Assembly (NCBI GenBank): GCA_964384235.1
Contig: CAYLJX010000002.1
Coordinates: forward strand, 114,660-178,659
Length of the DNA stretch: 64,000 nt
Origin: an uncultured Bdellovibrionales bacterium
GTDB taxonomy: Bacteria > Patescibacteriota > Minisyncoccia > Moranbacterales > UBA1568
Reading direction: 5' to 3'
Within the stretch, counting starts at the first letter, position 1. Every line of letters starts with the position of its first letter. The notes beneath the pieces are model-generated. The model made no database searches, was not told the origin of the DNA, and worked only from the letters and a program-made list of their open reading frames with translations. The position numbers and the translations under genes are program-made. Shown here in pieces: positions 5,639 through 57,225 of the stretch.

Positions 5639-5702
5639 AACGGTTAACGGGTTACGAGTTAAAAAGTTAAAAACCTGTTAACCTGTGAACTTGTTAACTG
5701 GA
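5639..5702. repeat. GTTAAC-rich intergenic repeat (copy 1 of 4)
   Basis: aacggttaacgggttacgagttaaaaagttaaaaacctgttaacctgtgaacttgttaactgg. Shares the gttaac, aaaagttaaaa and gtgaac vocabulary with copies at about 21231, 45240 and 47756. Confidence 0.6.
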
Positions 5703-6710: not shown

Positions 6711-6784
6711 TGCTATACTTCAAGTAAAGGATTTTTCTGTCAGTAATTTTGACTTTTGCCTTTTGAATTTTGACTTTCTTTCCT

Positions 6785-22114: not shown

Positions 22115-22133
22115 TGTTCCGCGTATTAAAAAG

Positions 22134-22528
22134 TGGAGTTGATGGGAATCGCACCCATGTCCAGGCATGTTTTTCCAAAATAGTCTACAAGCTTAGTGTC
22201 GCTTGGCATGAAAGAGGAGGGTAGAAGCGGACGAAATCCCTCATCAGTCTCTTCTTCTGCAACAGGTCCTGAAAATGAAGAGAAGGAAGATTCTCAGGCT
22301 GCCTCGATGATATGGCACCGGATGACTCGTATCGAGAATAGGAGGTCCGATGGCTCACGCGATTAGGCGCGGGCAAAAGCGAAAGACGGAGCAAACGCCG
22401 AAGCGATCGCGGTCTTGGCCTTGGTGATGAAGTTTGCAGTTATCATCGTGGGAACGAGTTTTACGATCATGTTCCCGAGATCGGCTTGCGTATTTTGAAA
22501 GTACATCCTGTCGAGTCTAGACAACCCC
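22134..22528 (-). ncRNA. ssrA: tmRNA (SsrA)
   Basis: On the minus strand. 5' end GGGGUUGUCUAGACUCGACAGG (tRNA-like 5' half). 3' end ACAUGGGUGCGAUUCCCAUCAACUCCA: T-arm plus acceptor strand pairing with the 5' GGGGUUG, giving a G3:U70 pair. Internal candidate tag frame GCA AAC ... GCC TAA. Directly downstream of smpB on the same strand. Confidence 0.55.
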
Positions 22529-22707
22529 TTGGTCATTGCAATAGGCGTGTTGCCATTGTGATGACTGAGCGATAGTGTAGAATGCGGTTTTTCTTTTTGG
22601 ATTGCTCAAATTTTAAATTTCTAATTTCAAATTTCTAAACAAAACCGAATGACTGAATGTCTGAAACATTAAAAATTCGGACTTGATTCAAAATTCTGAA
22701 TTCAAAA

Positions 22708-23154
22708 TTAGAAATTCTTTAAAGCTCGCTCGATCTTTCGTTTCGCTTCACGCTTCCCGATGTCCGAGCGCTTGTCGTAGGCTTTTTTCCCCTTGCCCAC
22801 GGCAAACTCCAACTTGACGAGTTGTTTCTTAGTATACAGTCGAATGGGCACTAAAGTCAAGCCTTCGACGCGTGATTTTCCTATCAGAGAGCGGATTTCC
22901 CGACGACGGAGGAGGAGTTTTCTGGAACGAGTGTCTTCGTGCCTCGTGTCCCGGTGGGCATGTTGATAACGAGGGATGAGGGCATTGGTGAGGTAGAGTT
23001 CGCTTCCTTTGACCGTGACAAAGGCTCCTTTGAGGCTTGCATGTCCAGTTTTGACGGATTTTACCTCGGCTCCGGTCAATACCAAACCCGCCTCATATCG
23101 ATCAGAGAGGGCATAATCGAAACTCGCTCGTTTGTTGGTAGCAATGACTTTCAT
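22708..23154 (-). CDS. smpB: SsrA-binding protein SmpB
   Basis: MKVIATNKRASFDYALSDRYEAGLVLTGAEVKSVK... ATG at 23154 within ORF 22708..23268. Confidence 0.85.
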   Translation of the reverse strand: MKVIATNKRASFDYALSDRYEAGLVLTGAEVKSVKTGHASLKGAFVTVKGSELYLTNALIPRYQHAHRDTRHEDTRSRKLLLRRREIRSLIGKSRVEGLTLVPIRLYTKKQLVKLEFAVGKGKKAYDKRSDIGKREAKRKIERALKNF

Positions 23155-23791: not shown

Positions 23792-25414
23792 ATGAAGATT
23801 CTGATCGAGAAACAATTGAGAGAAGCGATACGGGCATTGCAGGAAACAGGGATACTTCCTGCTTTTGATGTTCCTGGAATCCGTGTGGAGCGGCCCAAGG
23901 ACGATCAGTTCGGGGAGTATACGACCAATGTCGCATTGATGATCTCGAAGCAGGCAGGAAAGAGCCCGAGGGAGATAGCGGAAAAAATCAGAGAACAGCT
24001 AACAGAGAACAGTGAGCAGAATACTCTTTTTGAGAAAGTGGAAGTCGCAGGGCCGGGACATCTGAATTTTTATCTGTCGCAGGAGGCGCTCACGAACGTC
24101 GTGCGGGAGGTTTTGGAAAAAGGAGGATCATTCGGTGATTCGAATATCGGCGTAGGGGAGAAAGTGAACAACGAATTTATTTCGGCCAATCCGACGGGAC
24201 CCTTGCATCTTGGCAATGGCCGTGGCGGATTTTATGCCGATTCACTCTCGCGCGTCTTGCGAAAGAGCGGCTATGACGTGACGAACGAATACTATATCAA
24301 CGACGCCGGCGAGCAGGTGATGAAACTGGGGCATAGTGTCTTAAAGGACAGCGAGGCAGTCTATGGCGGCGACTATATCGACGCGCTCAATGAACAGCTA
24401 ACAGCGAACAGTGAACAGAAAAACCTGAATGCGAAAGAAATTGGGGAGTGGGCGGCGGAGATCGTGATGGAGGAGATGGTCAAGAAGACACTCTCTGAAC
24501 AGATGGCTATCTCGTTTGATGTTTTCACGTCAGAGAAGAAGGATGTCGTGGAGAAAGGTTTCGTAGACAAGGCTATCGAGATTTTCAAAGAAAAAGGGCT
24601 AGCGTTCGAAGAAGAGGGGGCACTTTGGCTTCGTACCACCGAGTTCGGTGACGACAAGGACCGCGTGCTCGTGAAGCAAGACGGCTCTCGGACGTACTTC
24701 GCTTCCGACTGTGGATACATCTTGCAGAAAATAGAGCGTGACTTTACGAGACTCATCGAGACATGGGGCGCTGACCATCACGGCTATGTGGCGCGTTTCA
24801 AGGCAGCAGCACAGGCGCTCGGGTTTCAGGGGAAAATCGATTTCCTTCTTGTTCAGCTCGTGAAGCTCGTCAAGGACGGCGTCGAGGTGAGGATGAGCAA
24901 GCGTGCCGGCAACGTGGTGACGATCGACGAGCTCATCGAGACGGTCGGGCACGACGTGGCGCGGTTCTTTTTCCTTATGTACGCGCCGGAGACACATATG
25001 AACTTCGATCTCGGGCTCGCCGAGGAGCGCTCCGCCAAGAACCCGGTCTTCTACGTGCAGTATGCGCACGCGAGGCTCGCGAGTATTCTGCGCAAAGCCG
25101 AGGAGGAAGGATTCGTATCGGACGGCGCCGACCTCTCCCTTCTTATGCATCCCAAGGAGCGTGAACTCATGCGCGAGCTCCTCTTTTTTCCGGAACTCGT
25201 CGAGACAGTCTCGGAAGACTTTTCCGTGCACAAGCTGCCGCAGTATGCTATCCGTCTTGCCGACAAGCTCCATTCTTTCTATGATGAGTGTCGGGTGCTC
25301 GATGCCGAGAATCAGTCTCTCTCGGCGGCACGCCTCGAACTCATCCGTTCTGTCAAGATCGTCCTCGGTGAAACCCTCTCCCTCATGGGTATCGACGCCC
25401 CGGAGAGGATGTAA
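23792..25414 (+). CDS. argS: arginyl-tRNA synthetase
   Basis: ANPTGPLHLGNGRG (HIGH-class motif), class I ArgRS domain order, 540 aa. Confidence 0.9.
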   Translation: MKILIEKQLREAIRALQETGILPAFDVPGIRVERPKDDQFGEYTTNVALMISKQAGKSPREIAEKIREQLTENSEQNTLFEKVEVAGPGHLNFYLSQEALTNVVREVLEKGGSFGDSNIGVGEKVNNEFISANPTGPLHLGNGRGGFYADSLSRVLRKSGYDVTNEYYINDAGEQVMKLGHSVLKDSEAVYGGDYIDALNEQLTANSEQKNLNAKEIGEWAAEIVMEEMVKKTLSEQMAISFDVFTSEKKDVVEKGFVDKAIEIFKEKGLAFEEEGALWLRTTEFGDDKDRVLVKQDGSRTYFASDCGYILQKIERDFTRLIETWGADHHGYVARFKAAAQALGFQGKIDFLLVQLVKLVKDGVEVRMSKRAGNVVTIDELIETVGHDVARFFFLMYAPETHMNFDLGLAEERSAKNPVFYVQYAHARLASILRKAEEEGFVSDGADLSLLMHPKERELMRELLFFPELVETVSEDFSVHKLPQYAIRLADKLHSFYDECRVLDAENQSLSAARLELIRSVKIVLGETLSLMGIDAPERM

Positions 25415-25599: not shown

Positions 25600-26169
25600 A
25601 TGGCAGAAAAAAACATCACGTTCTTTCTGGTGCGTCACGGCGAGGCGGAGCAGAACGTGTCCGGTATCGCGAGCTCGTGGCCGGAGACGCGCGAATTCCA
25701 TCTGACGGAAAAAGGTCGGAAGCAGATCGAAGCAGTGGCCGATCTTCTCTCCGGGAAACATATCGACAGGATCTTCTCGTCGCCGATCTGTCGGACGCGC
25801 GAGACGGCGGAAATGATCGCTGAAGCGACGGGTGCATCTGTCGAGTTCGATGAACGTCTGCGTGAGACAGGCCTCGGTATCTTCAATGGTCGGCCGGTCA
25901 GCGAATTCTTCGAAAAGTACTCTCCAGAAGCACGTATCAGTCCCGATCCGGCCGACGGCGTGGAGAGCTACATCGATATGCGCGCGCGCCTCACGCATTT
26001 CCTCGATGATATCAAGGAGAAATGTATCGGCCAGAGTGTCATCATCGTGTCGCATGGCGATCCGCTCGAGCAGCTCCATGGCATCCTCACGAACGAGGCT
26101 CCCGGCCGCTCGGCCACCGGCTGGTACGCCGAAAAGGGGAGTTGTACGGAAGTGACATGGAGATTCTAA
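25600..26169 (+). CDS. histidine phosphatase family protein (phosphoglycerate-mutase-like)
   Basis: LVRHGEAEQN catalytic RHG motif, second His region IVSHGD. Confidence 0.7.
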   Translation: MAEKNITFFLVRHGEAEQNVSGIASSWPETREFHLTEKGRKQIEAVADLLSGKHIDRIFSSPICRTRETAEMIAEATGASVEFDERLRETGLGIFNGRPVSEFFEKYSPEARISPDPADGVESYIDMRARLTHFLDDIKEKCIGQSVIIVSHGDPLEQLHGILTNEAPGRSATGWYAEKGSCTEVTWRF

Positions 26170-26642
26170 CCATCAAGATCCAAAAGAGTATGCTGTATTC
26201 CGAATACCGACAATTGTCTTCCGATGACGCATGTCATTTCTGTGACCCGGAGGACCGGGCGTTCGTCGAGAATGCGGACGCCTTCCTCACCTATGCCATC
26301 GCCCCGTATCATGAACATCACCTCCTTGTGATCCCCAAGCGGCACCGGGCGTCGTTTCTCGAGATGGAACGGGGGGAATTCGATCAGGTGTGGGACCTCA
26401 TCCGCAAGGGCGCGGCCATACTCCTCGAACTGGGATACGAGACCTACACCGTCATTGTCCGGGAAGGCAAGAACGCCGCCAAGAGCATGGAGCACCTGCA
26501 CTATCATCTCATTCCCAACAACCGCATCGGTGATCTCGACCATGCGGGACAAGGCCGATCCGTCATGGAGGCTTCGCAGATCGACCAGGTATCGCGAGAC
26601 GTCCGGGAAGCCATGGATCGGTTGAAATTCAACGGCATCTAA
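26157..26642 (+). CDS. HIT-family hydrolase
   Basis: Histidine triad HLHYHLIP. ATG at 26157, overlapping the upstream gene's end. Confidence 0.7.
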   Translation: MEILTIKIQKSMLYSEYRQLSSDDACHFCDPEDRAFVENADAFLTYAIAPYHEHHLLVIPKRHRASFLEMERGEFDQVWDLIRKGAAILLELGYETYTVIVREGKNAAKSMEHLHYHLIPNNRIGDLDHAGQGRSVMEASQIDQVSRDVREAMDRLKFNGI

Positions 26643-26659
26643 GGTTGCTTTTTCTTTTG

Positions 26660-26940
26660 GCGGGTGATACAGTGGCGGTACAATATTTGAAAGGCGATGA
26701 AGGGATCATCCTCCTGGAGCTCCAAGAAGAAAGCCTTTGCGGCGAGTAGAACTTGGCGGGCACGCCCGTAACAGCCGGAATGAAGGGTATTTTGTATTAT
26801 GTATTTTGTATTATGTATTCCTTATACATAATACTTGATACCAGATACTTCATACCGAACTGAGGTGGTACCACGCTCCGACTCCTTATCGGTCGTTCAG
26901 CGTCCTTAGCACAGAGCGTGTTAAGGATTTTTTGTTTTTA
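26660..26940 (+). promoter_or_regulatory. candidate T-box riboswitch leader (Ile-specific) with intrinsic terminator, upstream of ileS
   Basis: T-box core match AGGUGGUACCACGC at about 26863-26876 (consensus AGGGUGGNACCGCG). Candidate specifier AUC-A at about 26704-26711. Downstream terminator ccttagcac-agagc-gtgttaagg plus T-run at about 26904-26939. The motif 3' half cacgctc can pair with gagcgtg inside the terminator. Confidence 0.4.
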
Positions 26941-26945
26941 TAATT

Positions 26946-29900
26946 ATGTCATTCAAAAAAGTTCCGTCGCAGGTGAGTTTTCCGAAATTGGAGGAGGAGG
27001 TCCTCAAGTATTGGGAGGAGAACAAGATCTTCGAGAAGTCGGTGGAGAAAAATCCCGAGGACAAGACGTTCATTTTTTACGAAGGGCCGCCGACGGCTAA
27101 TGGCAAGCCGGGACTTCATCATGTCCTCGCACGCTCGTTCAAGGACATCATCCCGCGCTACAAGACGATGAAAGGTTATCGTGTCGAGCGCAAGGCCGGC
27201 TGGGACACGCACGGGTTGCCGGTGGAACTCCAGGTGGAAAAAGCACTCGGCCTCAGGAACAAACAGGACATCGAGAATATCGTGCCGGGCGATGCGCGGG
27301 CGAGTGTCATCGAGTTCAACAAGAAGTGCAAGGAATCCGTGTGGGAGTACCGCGACCTCTGGGAGAAGCTCACGCGGCGCATGGGTTATTGGGTCGATAT
27401 GGAACACCCGTACGTGACGTACGAGAACGAATACATCGAGTCGGTGTGGTGGCAGCTCGCGCAGGTCGCGGCACTGAAAAACGAGAAAGGGGAATCTTAT
27501 CTCTACAAGGGACACAAAGTCGTTCCGTACTGCTACCGCTGCGGAACAGCGCTCTCCTCGCACGAGGTGGCGCAGGGGTATCAGACTGTGAAGGATAATT
27601 CAGTGTATGTGAAATTCCAGTTAACAGCGAACAGCGAACAGAAAACGGAAAACAAGACATATCTTTTGGCATGGACCACTACGCCTTGGACTTTACCAGG
27701 AAACGCGGCTTTAGCTGTAAAAAAAGATGAAGTCAAATATATAACACTTGAAACTGAAGCTGATACGTCAAATTTAAAAAAAGGCGATCAAGTAGTCTTT
27801 GCTTTTACCCATGAGATATTAGGACGTGTTTTAGGTGATAATTTTAAGGAATTTCATAAGAGTAACCATGATTTATTGAATGCTGTTCCTGAGGCATACG
27901 AAACAGAAACCGGTGTGAGATATAAAGTTATAGGATTATGTGATGGGAATGAATTGTTAGGAAAACTATACGAACCTCTTTACGAAACCACAGGAAAAGA
28001 TGCGGAGAAATGTTACAGAGTGGTGGCGGGGGATTTCGTCACGACGACCGATGGTACGGGGATCGTGCACATCGCGCCGGCGTTCGGTGAGGATGATGCC
28101 AACGTCGGCAAGGAGAACGGTCTGCCGACGCTCCTGACTGTAGAGACGGACGGAACGCTCATGAAAGGTTTCGGTCTGCCGGGTGAGGGGATTCCGGTCA
28201 AGAAAAAGAACGACAAGAACCGCTATGCCGTGGACGATCTCATCATCGAGGACCTGAAACAGCGAGGACTGTTTTTCAATGAAGAAGTGTATGAGCATGA
28301 GTACCCGTTCTGCTGGCGTTGTGACACGCCGCTTATCTACTTCGCCAAGCCGTCGTGGTTCATCCGAATGGGTGAGCTTCGGGACGAACTCGTAAAGAAC
28401 AACGAGAGTATCACCTGGGTGCCGGAACATATCAAGGAAGGGCGCTTCGGCGAGTGGTTGCGCGGCGTGAAGGATTGGGCCATCTCACGTGAACGTTACT
28501 GGGGTACGCCGCTTCCCATTTGGGAATGTGACACGTGTGATACACGGAAAGTGATTTCTTCGACTGACGAACTGACGAAATTTTCCGGTAAGAAACTCGA
28601 AGATGTGCATAAGCCGTACATTGATGATGTGACGTGGTCATGCGAATGCGGTGGTACGATGAAACGGACGCCGGAAGTGCTCGACGTGTGGTTCGATTCC
28701 GGCGCGATGCCCTTGGCGCAGTTTACCTATCCGGAGCAGTCCGATGCGGTGGTCAAGGAAAAAATCGAATCCGGGAAATATTTCCCGGCGGACTATATCT
28801 GCGAGGCGATCGACCAGACGAGAGGGTGGTTCTATACGCTCCATGCCATCGCGACGCTTCTCAATAAGGCCGGGAAAGTGCCGGTAGGCAACGCCTACAA
28901 GAACGTCATCTGTCTCGGGCACGTGCTCGACGCGCAGGGCAAAAAGATGTCCAAGTCCAAGGGGAATGTCATCGATCCGTTCCAGATGTTTGAGGAATAC
29001 GGTGCCGATCCCTTGCGCTGGATGCTCTTCTCGATCAATCAGCCGGGACTACCGAAGCGTTTCGACGTGAAGGGGATGCGCGACGTGCAGAACCGCGTGT
29101 TCCGTATGCTCTGGAACTCGTACTCGTTCTTCATGACGTATGCGGCAATCGACGGTTGGCAGCCAAAAGCTACAAGCCACAAGCCACAAGCTACAAGCTT
29201 GCTCGACCGATGGATCGTTTCGGAATTACAGATGCTTATTAGGGGGGTCGATGGATCGCTTGCTGCTTATGATGTCTATACACCGACCAAGAAGATCGAG
29301 GTGTTCATTGATAATCTCTCCAATTGGTACATCCGTCGGAGCCGCGACCGCTTCTGGAAATCAGATGATGATACTGACAAGAACCAGGCATATCAGACGC
29401 TCTATGATGTGCTCGTGACGCTCTCGAAATTGATGGCCCCGTTCACGCCGTTCGTCGCCGAAGAAATCTATAGGGGATTAACAGGAAAAGAGTCCGTACA
29501 TCTCGCAGACTGGCCGGAGGCGGATGAAAAATTGATTGATGAAAACCTGAATGAAGAGATGCAACACGCCAGATTTATTGTGACGATGGGATTGAAAGTC
29601 CGCGCCGATGAAAAAATTAAAGTTCGTCAGCCACTTCAGAAAATAACAGCACGCCCGCTTGAGAAGGAACTGCAAGGAATTGTGTTGGATGAACTGAATG
29701 TGAAGGAATATGTCGAGCGTAAGGAAATGAACGAACTAGTTGAACTTGATCTGACTCCCAATGATGATCTTAGACTCGAGGGTGAGATGAATGAGATCAA
29801 CCGGGCAATCCAGGATGGCCGCAAGAAGGCGGAGTTTAATGTGGAGGACCGGATCGTACTCGGCTATCAGGGAAAGGAGGAAGTTTTTGAGAAGTTCGGT

Positions 29901-30020
29901 GATGAGATTGCAAAGAAAATCCTCGCGACGGAAGTAAAGAATGAAAATCTCACCGACGCCGAATACTCCGGAACGGTCGAAATCGAAGGAGAATCATTCT
30001 TGTTCTGGCTCAAACGGTAG
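26946..30020 (+). CDS. ileS: isoleucyl-tRNA synthetase
   Basis: PPTANGKPGLHHVLARSFKDI (HIGH-like region), KMSKSKGN, editing CP1 domain, 1024 aa. Confidence 0.9.
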   Translation: MSFKKVPSQVSFPKLEEEVLKYWEENKIFEKSVEKNPEDKTFIFYEGPPTANGKPGLHHVLARSFKDIIPRYKTMKGYRVERKAGWDTHGLPVELQVEKALGLRNKQDIENIVPGDARASVIEFNKKCKESVWEYRDLWEKLTRRMGYWVDMEHPYVTYENEYIESVWWQLAQVAALKNEKGESYLYKGHKVVPYCYRCGTALSSHEVAQGYQTVKDNSVYVKFQLTANSEQKTENKTYLLAWTTTPWTLPGNAALAVKKDEVKYITLETEADTSNLKKGDQVVFAFTHEILGRVLGDNFKEFHKSNHDLLNAVPEAYETETGVRYKVIGLCDGNELLGKLYEPLYETTGKDAEKCYRVVAGDFVTTTDGTGIVHIAPAFGEDDANVGKENGLPTLLTVETDGTLMKGFGLPGEGIPVKKKNDKNRYAVDDLIIEDLKQRGLFFNEEVYEHEYPFCWRCDTPLIYFAKPSWFIRMGELRDELVKNNESITWVPEHIKEGRFGEWLRGVKDWAISRERYWGTPLPIWECDTCDTRKVISSTDELTKFSGKKLEDVHKPYIDDVTWSCECGGTMKRTPEVLDVWFDSGAMPLAQFTYPEQSDAVVKEKIESGKYFPADYICEAIDQTRGWFYTLHAIATLLNKAGKVPVGNAYKNVICLGHVLDAQGKKMSKSKGNVIDPFQMFEEYGADPLRWMLFSINQPGLPKRFDVKGMRDVQNRVFRMLWNSYSFFMTYAAIDGWQPKATSHKPQATSLLDRWIVSELQMLIRGVDGSLAAYDVYTPTKKIEVFIDNLSNWYIRRSRDRFWKSDDDTDKNQAYQTLYDVLVTLSKLMAPFTPFVAEEIYRGLTGKESVHLADWPEADEKLIDENLNEEMQHARFIVTMGLKVRADEKIKVRQPLQKITARPLEKELQGIVLDELNVKEYVERKEMNELVELDLTPNDDLRLEGEMNEINRAIQDGRKKAEFNVEDRIVLGYQGKEEVFEKFGDEIAKKILATEVKNENLTDAEYSGTVEIEGESFLFWLKR

Positions 30021-36270: not shown

Positions 36271-37686
36271 ATGTCGCAAGAAAATAACGCGCAACTGATG
36301 GACAAGATCGTCTCTCTCGCCAAGCGCCGAGGATTCGTGTTTCCGTCATCGGAAATCTACGGCGGTTTCGCGGCGGTCTATGACTTCGGACCGTATGGCG
36401 TGGAGCTCGCCAAGAACATCCGCGAGGCGTGGTGGAAGGCGATGGTGTACGAACACGACAACATCGTCGGGCTCGACAGCGCCATCTTCATGCATCCGAA
36501 GGTCTGGGAAGCATCCGGTCATGTCGGCGGTTTCAGCGATCCTTTGGCTGAGTGCAAGGAGTGTCATACCCGCGTGCGCGTCGATCATCTCCTCGAAGAA
36601 GCGGGTGTCTTCGCGGACGAAAAGATGAGTGAGACGGAAATCAATGAACTCTTTCGGTCCGTCCGTGACAAAGTGAAGTGTCCCAAGTGCGGTAACAAAA
36701 ACTTCTCCGACGCCAAGAAGTTCAATCTCCTCGTCAAATCGAATCTCGGAAACTTCACTGGCGATTGGAATGACAACCCGACCTACCTGCGTGGCGAGAC
36801 GTGCCAGGGTATCTATGTCAATTTCAAGAACGTGCTCGATTCGTCCCGCGTCAAGGTACCCTTCGGCATCGCACAGATCGGCAAGGCGTTCCGCAACGAA
36901 ATCACGGCGCGGCAGTTCATCTTCCGCAAGCGCGAGTTCGAACAGATGGAGATGCAGTACTTCGTCCGACCGGAAGAAGCCGAAGCGACCTACGAGGAGT
37001 GGCGCAAGAAGCGTTTTCAGTACTATCTCGACCTCGGATTGAAAGCGGAAAATCTCCGCTGGCACGAGCATGAGAACCTCGTCTTCTATGCCAAGGCGGC
37101 CTGGGATATCGAGTATAACTTTCCCTTCGGCTTCAAGGAGCTCGAAGGTATCCACAACCGAAGCGATTACGACCTCACGCAGCATTCCAAATTCTCCGGT
37201 GTCGATCTTTCCTATCGTGACCCGCAGACCGGCGAGAAGTATATCCCGTGGATCGTGGAAACGTCGGTCGGTCTCGATCGGACGTTCCTCGCGGTGTTGA
37301 CCGATGCGTACACGGAGGAACAAGTCGGGGAGGGTGACACTCGTGTCGTCCTGAAATTTCCGAAGTCGCTCGCGCCGGTACAGGTGGCGGTGTTCCCGCT
37401 TCTCAAGAACAAGCCGGAGCTCGTGGAGAAGGCACGCGAGGTATACACCATGCTCAAGAAGGAGTTCCGCTCTGAATGGGATGACAATGGTAATGTCGGC
37501 AAGCGCTACCGCCGTCAGGACGAGATCGGCACACCGTACTGCGTCACCATCGACTTCGACACGTTGGGTGCTGGCACGGATGCATCCCTTACCGGTACCG
37601 TCACCGTCCGCGACCGCGACACGATGCAGCAGACCCGTATCGCCATCGCTGACTTGCAGAAGTATTTTTCCGAGAACCTCTCGTAA
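36271..37686 (+). CDS. glyQS: glycyl-tRNA synthetase, dimeric class II type
   Basis: FVFPSSEIYGGFAAVYDFGPYGVELAKNIREAWW, class II motifs 2 and 3 (FRNEITARQFIFRKREFEQMEMQYF). Confidence 0.9.
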   Translation: MSQENNAQLMDKIVSLAKRRGFVFPSSEIYGGFAAVYDFGPYGVELAKNIREAWWKAMVYEHDNIVGLDSAIFMHPKVWEASGHVGGFSDPLAECKECHTRVRVDHLLEEAGVFADEKMSETEINELFRSVRDKVKCPKCGNKNFSDAKKFNLLVKSNLGNFTGDWNDNPTYLRGETCQGIYVNFKNVLDSSRVKVPFGIAQIGKAFRNEITARQFIFRKREFEQMEMQYFVRPEEAEATYEEWRKKRFQYYLDLGLKAENLRWHEHENLVFYAKAAWDIEYNFPFGFKELEGIHNRSDYDLTQHSKFSGVDLSYRDPQTGEKYIPWIVETSVGLDRTFLAVLTDAYTEEQVGEGDTRVVLKFPKSLAPVQVAVFPLLKNKPELVEKAREVYTMLKKEFRSEWDDNGNVGKRYRRQDEIGTPYCVTIDFDTLGAGTDASLTGTVTVRDRDTMQQTRIAIADLQKYFSENLS

Positions 37687-37783
37687 AAAGTAGAACCACC
37701 ACTCGTCCGAAAAAATCGGACAACGTAGATTAGATTTTCAGATATACCTGATACATACTACGTAATACATAATACTGACGGGA

Positions 37784-42560: not shown

Positions 42561-42656
42561 ATGTAGAAAGTATCATGTAGTATGTATCATGTATGGGATA
42601 GAATGCGTGATACCGAATACAAGATACTTGATACATAATACGATATACATAATACG
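42561..42656. repeat. GTAT/ATAC-rich intergenic repeat (one of six copies)
   Basis: catgtagaaagtatcatgtagtatgtatcatgtatgggatagaatgcgtgataccgaatacaagatacttgatacataatacgatatacataatacg. Shares TACATAATAC / GTATTATGTA and GATACCGAATAC modules with copies at about 23156, 26789, 37741, 48755 and 57118. Confidence 0.55.
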
Positions 42657-44860: not shown

Positions 44861-44930
44861 AAAAGAAGTCAAAAGTCAAAGGTGAAAAGTCAAAAGTCCA
44901 AGTCGAAATTCAAAAGTTTGAATTGAAAAA
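44861..44930. repeat. AAAGTC(A/C) direct-repeat tract between atpB and atpE
   Basis: aaaaagaagtcaaaagtcaaaggtgaaaagtcaaaagtccaagtcgaaattcaaaagtttgaattg. Related tracts at about 6746-6778 (inverted), 16921-16950 and 19571-19600. Confidence 0.5.
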
Positions 44931-45239: not shown

Positions 45240-45312
45240 TATCCGGTTAAAAAGTTAAAAGGTTAACAGGTTTAGGAATCCAAACCCGTTAACTCGTTAA
45301 CCTGCAACTGTC
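45240..45312. repeat. GTTAAC-rich intergenic repeat (copy 3), between atpE and atpF
   Basis: atccggttaaaaagttaaaaggttaacaggtttaggaatccaaacccgttaactcgttaacctgcaactg. Confidence 0.55.
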
Positions 45313-47755: not shown

Positions 47756-47822
47756 CAGTTAACAAGTTAAAAGGTTAACAGCTTAAGAAAGCTTGTTAAC
47801 TTGTGAACTCGTTAACCGAATA
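47756..47822. repeat. GTTAAC-rich intergenic repeat (copy 4), between atpA and atpG
   Basis: cagttaacaagttaaaaggttaacagcttaagaaagcttgttaacttgtgaactcgttaaccg. Confidence 0.55.
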
Positions 47823-47833
47823 ACTGAAGGATT

Positions 47834-48754
47834 ATGGCTTCAGCTCGTGACATCCGACGGCGAATAAAGGGCGTGAAATCCACCGGCAAGATCACCCGGG
47901 CGATGGAGATGATTTCGGCCGTCAAGATGCGCAAGGCCGTGAGTTCGGTGCTCGCCATCCGTCCGTATGCCCAAGGGGCGATTGGGATGCTTCAGCGGCT
48001 TTCCCAGGCGGTCGGCAATGAACAGCATCCGCTTCTCATGGAACGACCGGTAAAGAAAGAACTCTACGTCGTCATCGCCTCCAATCGAGGTCTCTGCGGC
48101 GCGTTCAACGCCCAGATCGGGAAGCGTCTGCGCCAGGTCCTCCTCGAGGATACCGGTCGGGACCGGGTCTTCATTACGATCGGGAAGAAGGCAGACGCCA
48201 TGGTGCGTCGTGTCCAGGGAGAAACCATCGCGTCGTTTCCGGACGTGCTCAACGCCCTCAAGGCGGAGGACCTTCGGCCGGTGGCGCGCGTCATCATGGA
48301 CGAGTTCGAGGCGAAACGCGTCGACCGCGTGGTGATGGTGTACACGGATTTCGTCTCGATGCTCTCGCAGGAGGTGAAGGTCCGGGCGCTCCTCCCGGTC
48401 GCGATCAAGGACACGAGGAAGGCCTTGAACGAAATGGGAGAAATGAGTGAAAAGGGAGAAACGGGAGACGAAAAAGGGAAGGGCGGCATGCAAGCCGAGT
48501 ATCTGATCGAGCCGAGTGCCAAGAAGGTATTGTGGCGGATGATTCCGCGGCTCATCGAGATGGAACTCTATCATGCCGTTCTCGAGAGCAACGCCTCGCA
48601 GGAGTCGGCCCGGATGATGGCCATGCGCAACGCGACCGACGCCGCCAAGGAAATGGTGGCCGACCTCACGCTCGCCTACAACCAGGTCCGTCAGGGCAAG
48701 ATCACGCAGGAAATCGCCGAGCTCTCGGCGGGTATGGCGGCTGTCTCGAAATAG
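47834..48754 (+). CDS. atpG: ATP synthase F1 gamma subunit
   Basis: MASARDIRRRIKGVKSTGKITRAMEMISAVKMRKA N-terminus and conserved C-terminal helix. Confidence 0.85.
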   Translation: MASARDIRRRIKGVKSTGKITRAMEMISAVKMRKAVSSVLAIRPYAQGAIGMLQRLSQAVGNEQHPLLMERPVKKELYVVIASNRGLCGAFNAQIGKRLRQVLLEDTGRDRVFITIGKKADAMVRRVQGETIASFPDVLNALKAEDLRPVARVIMDEFEAKRVDRVVMVYTDFVSMLSQEVKVRALLPVAIKDTRKALNEMGEMSEKGETGDEKGKGGMQAEYLIEPSAKKVLWRMIPRLIEMELYHAVLESNASQESARMMAMRNATDAAKEMVADLTLAYNQVRQGKITQEIAELSAGMAAVSK

Positions 48755-48903
48755 TATTCAGTATTTCGTATATCGTATGGCGTATTCCGGTACGTGATGC
48801 GAGATACCAGATACCGAATCTGGAAGGAATTTTAAAAAAGCACGCAGAAATGATTCAAGACAGTCCGCGTTGCGAACTGTCTTGTCGAGAGGGGTGGCCG
48901 TGG

Positions 48904-57117: not shown

Positions 57118-57225
57118 CGTATCTAGTATCTAGTATCTTGTATTATGTATTGGGTATGATATATTGAATTTTTTTTCCATACATAATACAAAATACATAC
57201 TACATAATACATACTCCTTACTACG

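Follow-up and report, generated by a model that had tools for sequence, protein, structure and literature searches.

What controls the isoleucyl-tRNA synthetase gene ileS in an uncultured patescibacterium? The question is raised by a 303-nt spacer (26643-26945) that separates an open reading frame (ORF) with a HIT domain (26022-26642) from ileS in contig CAYLJX010000002.1, of which we analyzed a stretch of 64,000 nucleotides (the window, to whose full length all coordinates refer unless a related locus is named). A preliminary description, made from the letters of the window, had proposed an Ile-specific T-box riboswitch with competing terminator and antiterminator 5' of ileS, and this proposal gained support from homology, from covariation in 23 leaders, and from the energetics of both folds. 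We conclude, with a probability of roughly 80%, that positions 26690-26939 are an Ile-specific T-box riboswitch leader of ileS with an ultrashort Stem I and a terminator/antiterminator switch, the function being predicted from sequence comparison and folding.

An ileS leader family below the Rfam threshold

The check with the Rfam T-box model RF00230 that the preliminary description had suggested came out divided. At the Rfam gathering score, the window gave no T-box, and only a tmRNA and a tRNA-Leu were found. A focused search of 26600-27000 with the same model returned a match at 26688-26910 that covers model positions 1-219, the full length, at 37 bits (E = 7.9e-7), where the curated gathering cut-off is 93 bits. 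In this alignment, 6 nt take the place of the 76 model positions of distal Stem I, which accounts for the low score, and ~55 nt are inserted in Stem III. At the gathering threshold, 20 related loci likewise yielded no T-box match, and the leaders of three Kribbella loci (L054, L062, and L076; leaders at about 1264-1446) fell below the cut-off, as did L015, L025, and L070; canonical ileS T-boxes (L039, L042, L044, and L125) passed at 99-140 bits. Because known short-Stem-I control leaders fail too, the RF00230 threshold is uninformative for divergent leaders from outside the Firmicutes. This amounts to an annotation gap, as the threshold misses the 19 scanned leaders of Candidate Phyla Radiation (CPR) type, the window, and the Kribbella leaders, which belong to a known class with an ultrashort Stem I (US).

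Using a covariance model of our own (R1), which was built from six relatives with the window excluded and Stem III left unstructured, we obtained a full-length match at 26690-26909 of the window with 103.6 bits (E about 1e-26). The 19 other CPR-type leaders scored 34-145 bits with R1 (18 of them 64-145 bits, L112 33.7 bits), four actinobacterial Kribbella ileS leaders matched the entire model at 56-63 bits, and canonical ileS T-boxes with a long Stem I reached 15-29 bits. The relatives are metagenome-assembled genomes (MAGs) of Moraniibacteriota/Patescibacteria and metagenome contigs, more of which were added by a metagenome scan. The motif GGUGGUACCACG lies 5' of ileS in L001-L004, L006, L008, L009, L012, L052, L082-L085, L087, L088, L091, L106, L112, and L127.

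These leaders follow a common plan. Stem I has GCGAUGAA ... GGAGC as a base that resembles a kink-turn (K-turn) and a 4-bp helix that closes a loop of the form NN-AUC-N. Next, at a constant offset, comes the 5-bp basal helix of Stem II, which also has the strands AAGAAA and GAGUAGAA; it is succeeded by CGGGnnnnCCCGUAAYAG, which forms Stem IIA/B. In the 3' half, Stem III and the A2 helix vary; AGGUGGUACCACG stands between them, and A2 is followed by CGUCCUU and by a hairpin that abuts or closely precedes a U-run. When 23 natural sequences were aligned by the model, 95.4% of the cells formed pairs, as compared to 77.9% for shuffled sequences (0 of 500 shuffles reached the natural value) and 39-49% when partners were slid. 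Compensatory double changes were present in 20 of the 28 pairs, including every Stem I and Stem II pair, and a hand-trimmed core alignment of 17 leaders agreed with the model-based one.

One further short-Stem-I ileS leader, in L093 (1290-1480), is more divergent: it reads CCGG-CCAUCA-CCGG in Stem I, has its bulge in GCGAUGGUACC, and scored 43 bits with R1. It possesses a U-run as well as a GGAG 10 nt before the ATG.

Architecture of the leader

The leader comprises the following features:
26694-26720, plus strand: ultrashort Stem I (Rfam alignment, covariation)
26708-26710, plus strand: specifier codon AUC (Ile), hexaloop positions 3-5 (family alignment)
26722-26756, plus strand: Stem II with S-turn (folding, covariation)
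26757-26776, plus strand: Stem IIA/B pseudoknot with the F-box-like CCCGUAACAG (pairing statistics)
26786-26856, plus strand: Stem III, a 71-nt hairpin with GUAUnnn heptads in the 5' arm and nnnAUAC heptads in the 3' arm (folding, position in relatives)
26860-26909, plus strand: antiterminator (minimum-energy fold, covariation, Rfam alignment)
26866-26869, plus strand: UGGU of the T-box bulge (conservation)
26902-26928, plus strand: intrinsic terminator hairpin (folding, conservation)
26928-26939, plus strand: U-run UUUUUUGUUUUU (U6GU5), directly 3' of the hairpin

Stem I starts from the basal pairs G26694-C26720 and C26695-G26719, passes through a K-turn-like GAUGAA (26696-26701) opposite GGA (26716-26718), and ends in a 4-bp helix of GGGA (26702-26705) with UCCU (26712-26715) that closes the terminal hexaloop UCAUCC (26706-26711). 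All six seed sequences have the G and the A of the K-turn. The 4-bp helix occurs in the family as GGGA/UCCU, GGAG/CUCC, GAGG/CCUC, AGAG/CUCU, and GGGG/CCCC; all four pairs have compensatory changes, and 98.9% of the cells pair. A Stem I that presents AUC, which the preliminary description had called for, is supported by the comparison of leaders, in the shape of an ultrashort stem with AUC in its hexaloop.

The AUC of the loop is the specifier codon, and its amino acid, Ile, is that of the downstream ileS. In 22 of the 23 model-aligned leaders, AUC occupies the same loop position; the remaining one, L052, is misaligned and has AUC in its loop when inspected by eye. The register is fixed because the loop of L001 (UGAUCC) holds a single AUC. 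The preliminary description had read the specifier as AUC-A at 26705-26708. These letters are present and the amino acid stays Ile, but the true specifier lies 3 nt downstream. We rejected the AUC-A register on the family alignment and because A26705 pairs with U26712 to close the Stem I helix. Of 17 CPR-type leaders, 11 have A directly after the specifier, 3 have G, and 3 have C (C26711 of the window, L001, and L012). Within the Stem I loop of L008, L083, and L106, a small extra hairpin was seen 5' of AUC, making Stem I slightly longer, still without a platform.

Stem II pairs CCAAG (26722-26726) with CUUGG (26752-26756) in its basal helix and GCC (26733-26735) with GGC (26741-26743) in its distal helix, the S-turn strands AAGAAA (26727-26732) and GAGUAGAA (26744-26751) between them being nearly invariant in the family. 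It folds as drawn, with -8.2 kcal/mol and 81% of the ensemble, and shows compensatory changes at 5 of 5 basal and 4 of 4 distal pairs. In the adjoining pseudoknot, IIA consists of CGG (26757-26759) with CCG (26766-26768), and IIB of G26764-C26775 and C26765-G26774. For IIA/B, 95.8% of the cells pair, versus 20-51% in slid controls. Covariation support for IIB is modest, with compensatory changes at 2 of 3 pairs; among relatives, GC, CG, AU, and GU all occur at its outer pair.

A predicted terminator that competes with the antiterminator

The T-box core AGGUGGUACCACGC stands at 26863-26876, with UGGU at 26866-26869, at or near the place given in the preliminary description. In the antiterminator, A1 pairs CUGAGG (26860-26865) with CCUUAG (26904-26909), the 7-nt bulge UGGUACC follows at 26866-26872, and A2 pairs ACGCU (26873-26877) with AGCGU (26899-26903) beneath an extra hairpin cap (26878-26898). 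When 26856-26910 is folded by itself, this structure has the lowest energy (-16.1 kcal/mol) and makes up 65% of the ensemble. Its outer A1 pair and its inner A2 pair covary, and the Rfam alignment sets the region on the T-box antiterminator. The sequence GGUGGUACC is identical in all 20 CPR-type leaders that were parsed and is present in the Kribbella leaders too.

The hairpin that follows pairs UCCUUAGCAC (26903-26912) with GUGUUAAGGA (26918-26927) across the loop AGAGC, forming 10-11 bp (26902/26903 to 26927/26928), and runs directly into the U-run, as had been described. At -14.7 kcal/mol (z = -4.5), it was matched by 0 of 200 shuffles. An equivalent hairpin of -5 to -18 kcal/mol is present in 20 of 20 relatives, with a U-run abutting it or close behind in all of them. 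Over 13 comparable leaders, 96.7% of its cells pair and 5 of 9 pairs have compensatory changes.

Both structures require CCUUAG (26904-26909): A1 uses it as its 3' strand, and the terminator as the first part of its 5' strand. In 20 of 20 leaders, the overlap lies in CCUU(A/C/G)N, the 3' strand of A1. The A2 hairpin is able to persist in both states. Upon folding 26856-26940, we obtained the terminator fold as the unconstrained minimum (-23.9 kcal/mol), as compared to -18.2 kcal/mol when the antiterminator was enforced. Because the terminator fold is the more stable one, OFF would be the default state and the antiterminator would need stabilization from outside. The preliminary description had located the competition elsewhere, between cacgctc (26872-26878) and gagcgtg (26914-26920). 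This complementarity is real, but the pairing, when enforced, gave -17.3 kcal/mol and does not reach the stability of the terminator fold, and the relatives conserve a different overlap, CCUUAG; we therefore rejected the pairing as the switch point.

On the established T-box mechanism (as set out in reviews), UGGU is expected to pair with the 3' ACCA of an uncharged tRNA that has A as its discriminator. The switch would then operate as follows. The K-turn and the 4-bp helix would offer AUC (26708-26710) in the hexaloop to a GAU anticodon, with Stem II, its S-turn, and the IIA/B pseudoknot standing in for an absent elbow-docking platform. The UGGU bulge of the antiterminator, 3' of the long Stem III, would pair with the free ACCA end of uncharged tRNA-Ile. 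Without this stabilization by tRNA, CCUUAG would leave A1 for the more stable terminator hairpin (26903-26927), and the U-run behind the hairpin would make RNA polymerase halt 7-18 nt before the ileS start codon. Low charging of tRNA-Ile would accordingly allow read-through and yield more IleRS. Binding of tRNA, response to charging, and termination of transcription as the output are in this way predicted for the leader.

Heptad repeats in the place of Stem III

A GTAT/ATAC repeat in the middle of the leader had appeared as an oddity in the preliminary description. The repeat is indeed present, at 26786-26856, but it is no oddity, as it is Stem III itself and stands at the same position in relatives. 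The hairpin has -26.1 kcal/mol (z = -3.9) and purine-rich flanks, GGAAUGAAG (26777-26785) and GAACUGAGG. Its surroundings, ...AAUGAAG before the hairpin and GAACUGAGGUGG after it, match those around a GC Stem III of 5-9 bp in L001, L003, L009, L082, and L088. Heptads also make up Stem III in a few relatives, with GUAU in L008 (116-190), L012 (about 140-203), and L052 (1350-1429), AGCUnnn in L087 (1255-1326), and UAGUUnn in L112 (1324-1388). This pattern suggests, on sequence comparison, that genomes have repeat families of their own, which replace one another at a constant place in the leader.

The GTAT heptad array is a genome-wide element. We saw four other intergenic GTATnnn/nnnATAC arrays in the window (37751-37775, 42570-42655, 48754-48815, and 57119-57213), three of which end 1-12 nt before start codons, namely ATG 37784 of an M16-type peptidase, ATG 42657 of a TatD-like protein, and ATG 57226 of a UppP-like protein. 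With the spacer ATA, the ATAC arm repeats the -10-like hexamer CATAAT with a 7-nt period, and it is possible that the arrays are linked to promoters or leaderless mRNAs. Other arrays with a period of 7-8 nt lie at 5657-5698, 45245-45302, and 47758-47816; at 6747-6777 and 44866-44917; and at 22606-22717, with differing units (GTTAAnnn/nnnTTAAC, TTGACnn/AAGTCAA, and TCAAATT/ATTCAAA), some of them forming neighboring arrays whose units are reverse-complementary. Periodic arrays seem to be a general feature of this genome. A search of the relatives' loci for other heptad hairpins was uninformative, as these loci are almost entirely coding.

Could the GTAT hairpin then have come into the leader as an independent element found across the genome, one that is tied to promoters or binds a protein, and act there as a second input or ride along as a neutral passenger? 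The similar arrays at the four other intergenic sites, with their closeness to start codons, would fit such an origin, and so would a repeat unit that varies between genomes while its position in the leader stays constant. We nevertheless consider it unlikely. The hairpin exactly replaces Stem III between the usual purine-rich flanking strands, most relatives do without a heptad hairpin, and neither length nor sequence of Stem III is conserved in T-boxes. In the related US T-box of M. smegmatis, moreover, lengthening Stem III by 11 bp led to about 6-fold tighter tRNA binding (preprint). By inference from these cases, a long Stem III is tolerated in T-boxes and could be of benefit.

A bolder proposal joins Stem III to the mode of regulation: a T-box without any elbow-docking platform would decide co-transcriptionally, within kinetic limits, and heptad hairpins would have been co-opted as an extended Stem III in several lineages. 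We hold this as a speculative idea that is probably wrong as a whole. In such a scheme, the longer Stem III might make tRNA bind more tightly, leave more time for the decision, or recruit a factor that serves as a second input. If true, the platform-free switch with its co-opted heptads would overturn the requirement of a long Stem I for transcriptional T-boxes, and the co-opted heptads would tie a genome-wide repeat family to riboswitch tuning.

Control of transcription or of translation

Whether the terminator hairpin acts on RNA polymerase or on the ribosome can be approached from the sequence around the start codon and from the gene order in relatives. Between the U-run and the AUG (UUUUUAUAAUU AUG), we found no Shine-Dalgarno (SD)-like sequence in the window and its close relatives; the start codon comes 6 nt past the U-run (AUAAUU, then AUG). 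By a crude count with uncurated starts, ~6 of 44 long ORFs of the window have GGAG, GAGG, or AGGA within 18 nt upstream of their ATG, and the organism, judged from its sequence, appears to make little use of SD sites. Furthermore, L001, L008, L012, L085, L088, and L091 have one or two unrelated ORFs inserted ahead of ileS, downstream of the T-box, so that in those relatives control must act on the transcript and not on ileS initiation. As there is no SD site, the U-run is conserved, and ORFs are interposed in relatives, we favor transcription attenuation.

The interposed ORFs span 981-1487 in L001, 348-1466 in L085, 224-1483 in L088, and 1071-1382 in L091, and comprise about 205-230 amino acids (aa) plus 169-170 aa in L008 and L012. 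By eye, their N-termini include an HD-like motif, a NUDIX-like one, and a hydrophobic stretch, next to small ORFs. Such genes would be co-regulated by tRNA-Ile charging.

An action on translation, alone or in addition, would have the OFF hairpin (26903-26927) hinder loading of the 30S subunit on an A/U-rich region that lacks an SD site, in parallel with the action of ultrashort ileS T-boxes in Actinobacteria. We regard this as quite unlikely, even if the decoding half of the leader belongs to a class that the literature calls translational, only 18 nt separate the end of the hairpin from the start codon, and the divergent relative L093 has its GGAG. Neither the window nor its close relatives contain a pairing of SD and anti-SD strands, and the hairpin takes in neither the AUG nor the A/U tract. 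The U-run at the hairpin, found in 20 of 20 leaders, is a signature of intrinsic termination that the Kribbella sequestrators lack, and the genes between T-box and ileS in several relatives place control on the transcript.

Evidence against the T-box reading and two weaker alternatives

Several observations weigh against reading 26690-26939 as an Ile-specific T-box with an ultrashort Stem I and a terminator. The 4-bp Stem I did not emerge from thermodynamic folding, either of the whole leader or of Stem I alone; by itself, Stem I has its lowest energy as a GAUGA/UCAUC hairpin (within 26696-26710) that buries the specifier, albeit one no better than that of a shuffled sequence (z = +0.5). Because folding missed the 4-bp stem, we used comparative evidence for Stem I. 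This evidence has biases of its own, since pairing ability guided the choice of the Stem I strands in the trimmed alignments and of 2 of the 17 Stem II offsets, and since the model-based alignment, which avoids such a choice, leans towards the structure of the model. The window further carries C after the specifier, where characterized T-boxes conserve a purine (review), and a C26763/C26776 mismatch at the outer IIB pair. No tRNA-Ile gene was found in the window or in 27 loci. A73 is usual in bacterial tRNA-Ile, and we presume a tRNA with A73 and a GAU anticodon. Finally, the long-Stem-I platform is absent. Transcriptional T-boxes generally need a long Stem I with a double T-loop platform, and ultrashort Stems I belong to translational, mostly actinobacterial T-boxes, a split that has been explained by the fast capture of tRNA before RNA polymerase reaches the terminator (review). 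A platform-free co-transcriptional switch may therefore be inefficient or work differently.

It is very improbable that these deviations mark a decaying relic, that is, a former T-box that no longer binds tRNA and whose terminator is constitutive or leaky. The window does deviate in three respects (C after the specifier, C/C in IIB, and a Stem III and an A2 that are both greatly enlarged by insertions), but its helices are all intact and score 103.6 bits on the family model, and both the C after AUC and the heptad Stem III recur in L001, L012, and L008, whose other helices show compensatory changes. A constitutive terminator in front of an essential, single-copy-type aminoacyl-tRNA synthetase gene would presumably also be costly.

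The form drawn in the preliminary description, a class I T-box of canonical build whose long Stem I would span about 26690-26790 and hold AUC-A in an internal loop, has next to no chance of being correct, as that stretch instead holds Stem I, Stem II, and IIA/B in succession: RF00230 does align at full model length and AUC-A is present, but distal Stem I falls short by 76 model positions, 26722-26776 is wholly taken up by the covarying Stem II and IIA/B, A26705 belongs to the closing pair of a covarying 4-bp helix, and 37 bits compare with 99-140 bits for canonical ileS T-boxes.

Relation to known T-box classes

The US class is defined as translational and ileS-specific (preprint), with members in M. 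smegmatis, in M. tuberculosis (PDB 6UFG/6UFH), and in N. farcinica (6UFM) (Sherwood, Grundy & Henkin 2015, as cited). The decoding half of our leader resembles this class: both regulate ileS, possess a K-turn and a 4-bp Stem I, and present AUC in a terminal hexaloop, which reads GGGG-nnAUCA-CCCC in Kribbella and GGGA-UCAUCC-UCCU in the window. An S-turn in Stem II, the GGUGGUACC bulge, and inserted sequence in both Stem III and A2 are further features in common. They part ways at the output. Leaders of the US class carry an SD sequestrator/antisequestrator without a U-run, whereas the window has an intrinsic terminator with a U-run and no SD site; in Kribbella, the leaders end in ...CCCUUCGUCG...CGACGAAGGA(n)AUG without a U-run, and GAAGGA is paired to an anti-SD strand that forms the sequestrator. 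Further differences concern the hosts (actinobacteria versus Patescibacteria/CPR), the IIA/B element, which is CGGGnnnnCCCGUAAYAG in the window family and looks different in Kribbella, and the base after AUC, which is A in the US-type Kribbella leaders and C in the window.

With class I T-boxes (RF00230; B. subtilis tyrS/glyQS; L039, L042, L044, and L125), the leader shares the T-box sequence, the antiterminator with its 7-nt bulge, the reuse of the antiterminator 3' strand by the terminator, the U-run, the OFF default, and the layout of Stem II, IIA/B, and Stem III. Unlike these, it has no distal Stem I, AG bay, distal loop, or double T-loop elbow platform, its specifier lies in a terminal instead of an internal loop, and its RF00230 score is 37 as compared to 99-140 bits. 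T-boxes with a Stem I of intermediate length (review) are resembled by L008, L083, and L106, while the window has the plain hexaloop form. The leader of the window hence decodes in the manner of the US class and has the output of class I, and it lacks one defining feature of each, the sequestrator of the former and the platform of the latter.

The family thus joins an ultrashort decoding module to an intrinsic terminator in bacteria that hardly use SD sites. Should the switch function in the predicted way, the length of Stem I would be tied to transcriptional or translational control by history rather than by mechanism. Among actinobacterial short-Stem-I leaders, "many" are reportedly translational, and transcriptional short-Stem-I T-boxes may already have been noted by others. 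The hosts of surveyed T-boxes are Firmicutes, Actinobacteria, Chloroflexi, Deinococcus-Thermus, and a few Proteobacteria, and the class II model of TBDB was searched only in Actinobacteria and among truncated class I hits. In the library that was searched, no paper brought T-boxes into connection with Patescibacteria, the Candidate Phyla Radiation, or Parcubacteria; the family would widen the host range of T-boxes to Patescibacteria/CPR. Its shortest members, of about 150 nt (L001, L082, and L088), offer a compact predicted transcriptional tRNA sensor for engineering.

The ileS locus and its neighborhood

Two further features frame the leader:
26657-26684, plus strand: promoter-like site, TTGGCG, 16-nt spacer, TACAAT (consensus scan, 9 of 12 matches)
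26946-30020, plus strand: ileS, the gene under control (TIGR00392; tRNA-synt_1, Anticodon_1, DUF5915)

The downstream gene is ileS, as the preliminary description had it. Its ORF encodes a class I synthetase of 1024 aa that matches TIGR00392 at 936 bits (cut-off 621) and has the domains tRNA-synt_1, Anticodon_1, and, at the C-terminus, DUF5915. The nearest IleRS genes (60-71% identity) belong to MAGs of Candidatus Moraniibacteriota/Patescibacteria. The promoter-like site would, on its sequence, put the transcript start a few nucleotides 5' of the Stem I base; it is not significant alone, as the consensus scan found 1 such site where 0.9 were expected by chance. By eye, -10-like hexamers also stand 5-11 nt 5' of the Stem I GGC in L001 (TACAAT), L082 (TATAAT), L003 (TATACT), and L093 (TATAAT).

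Three aminoacyl-tRNA synthetase genes lie within 14 kb, encoding ArgRS (23792-25414), IleRS, and a probable GlyRS (36271-37686) whose label was judged from the sequence only; among these, only ileS has a T-box match with Rfam or model R1. The tmRNA gene on the minus strand (22131-22528), of which ARAGORN gave no report, scored 106.7 bits and shows a long insertion after the resume codon in the Rfam alignment.

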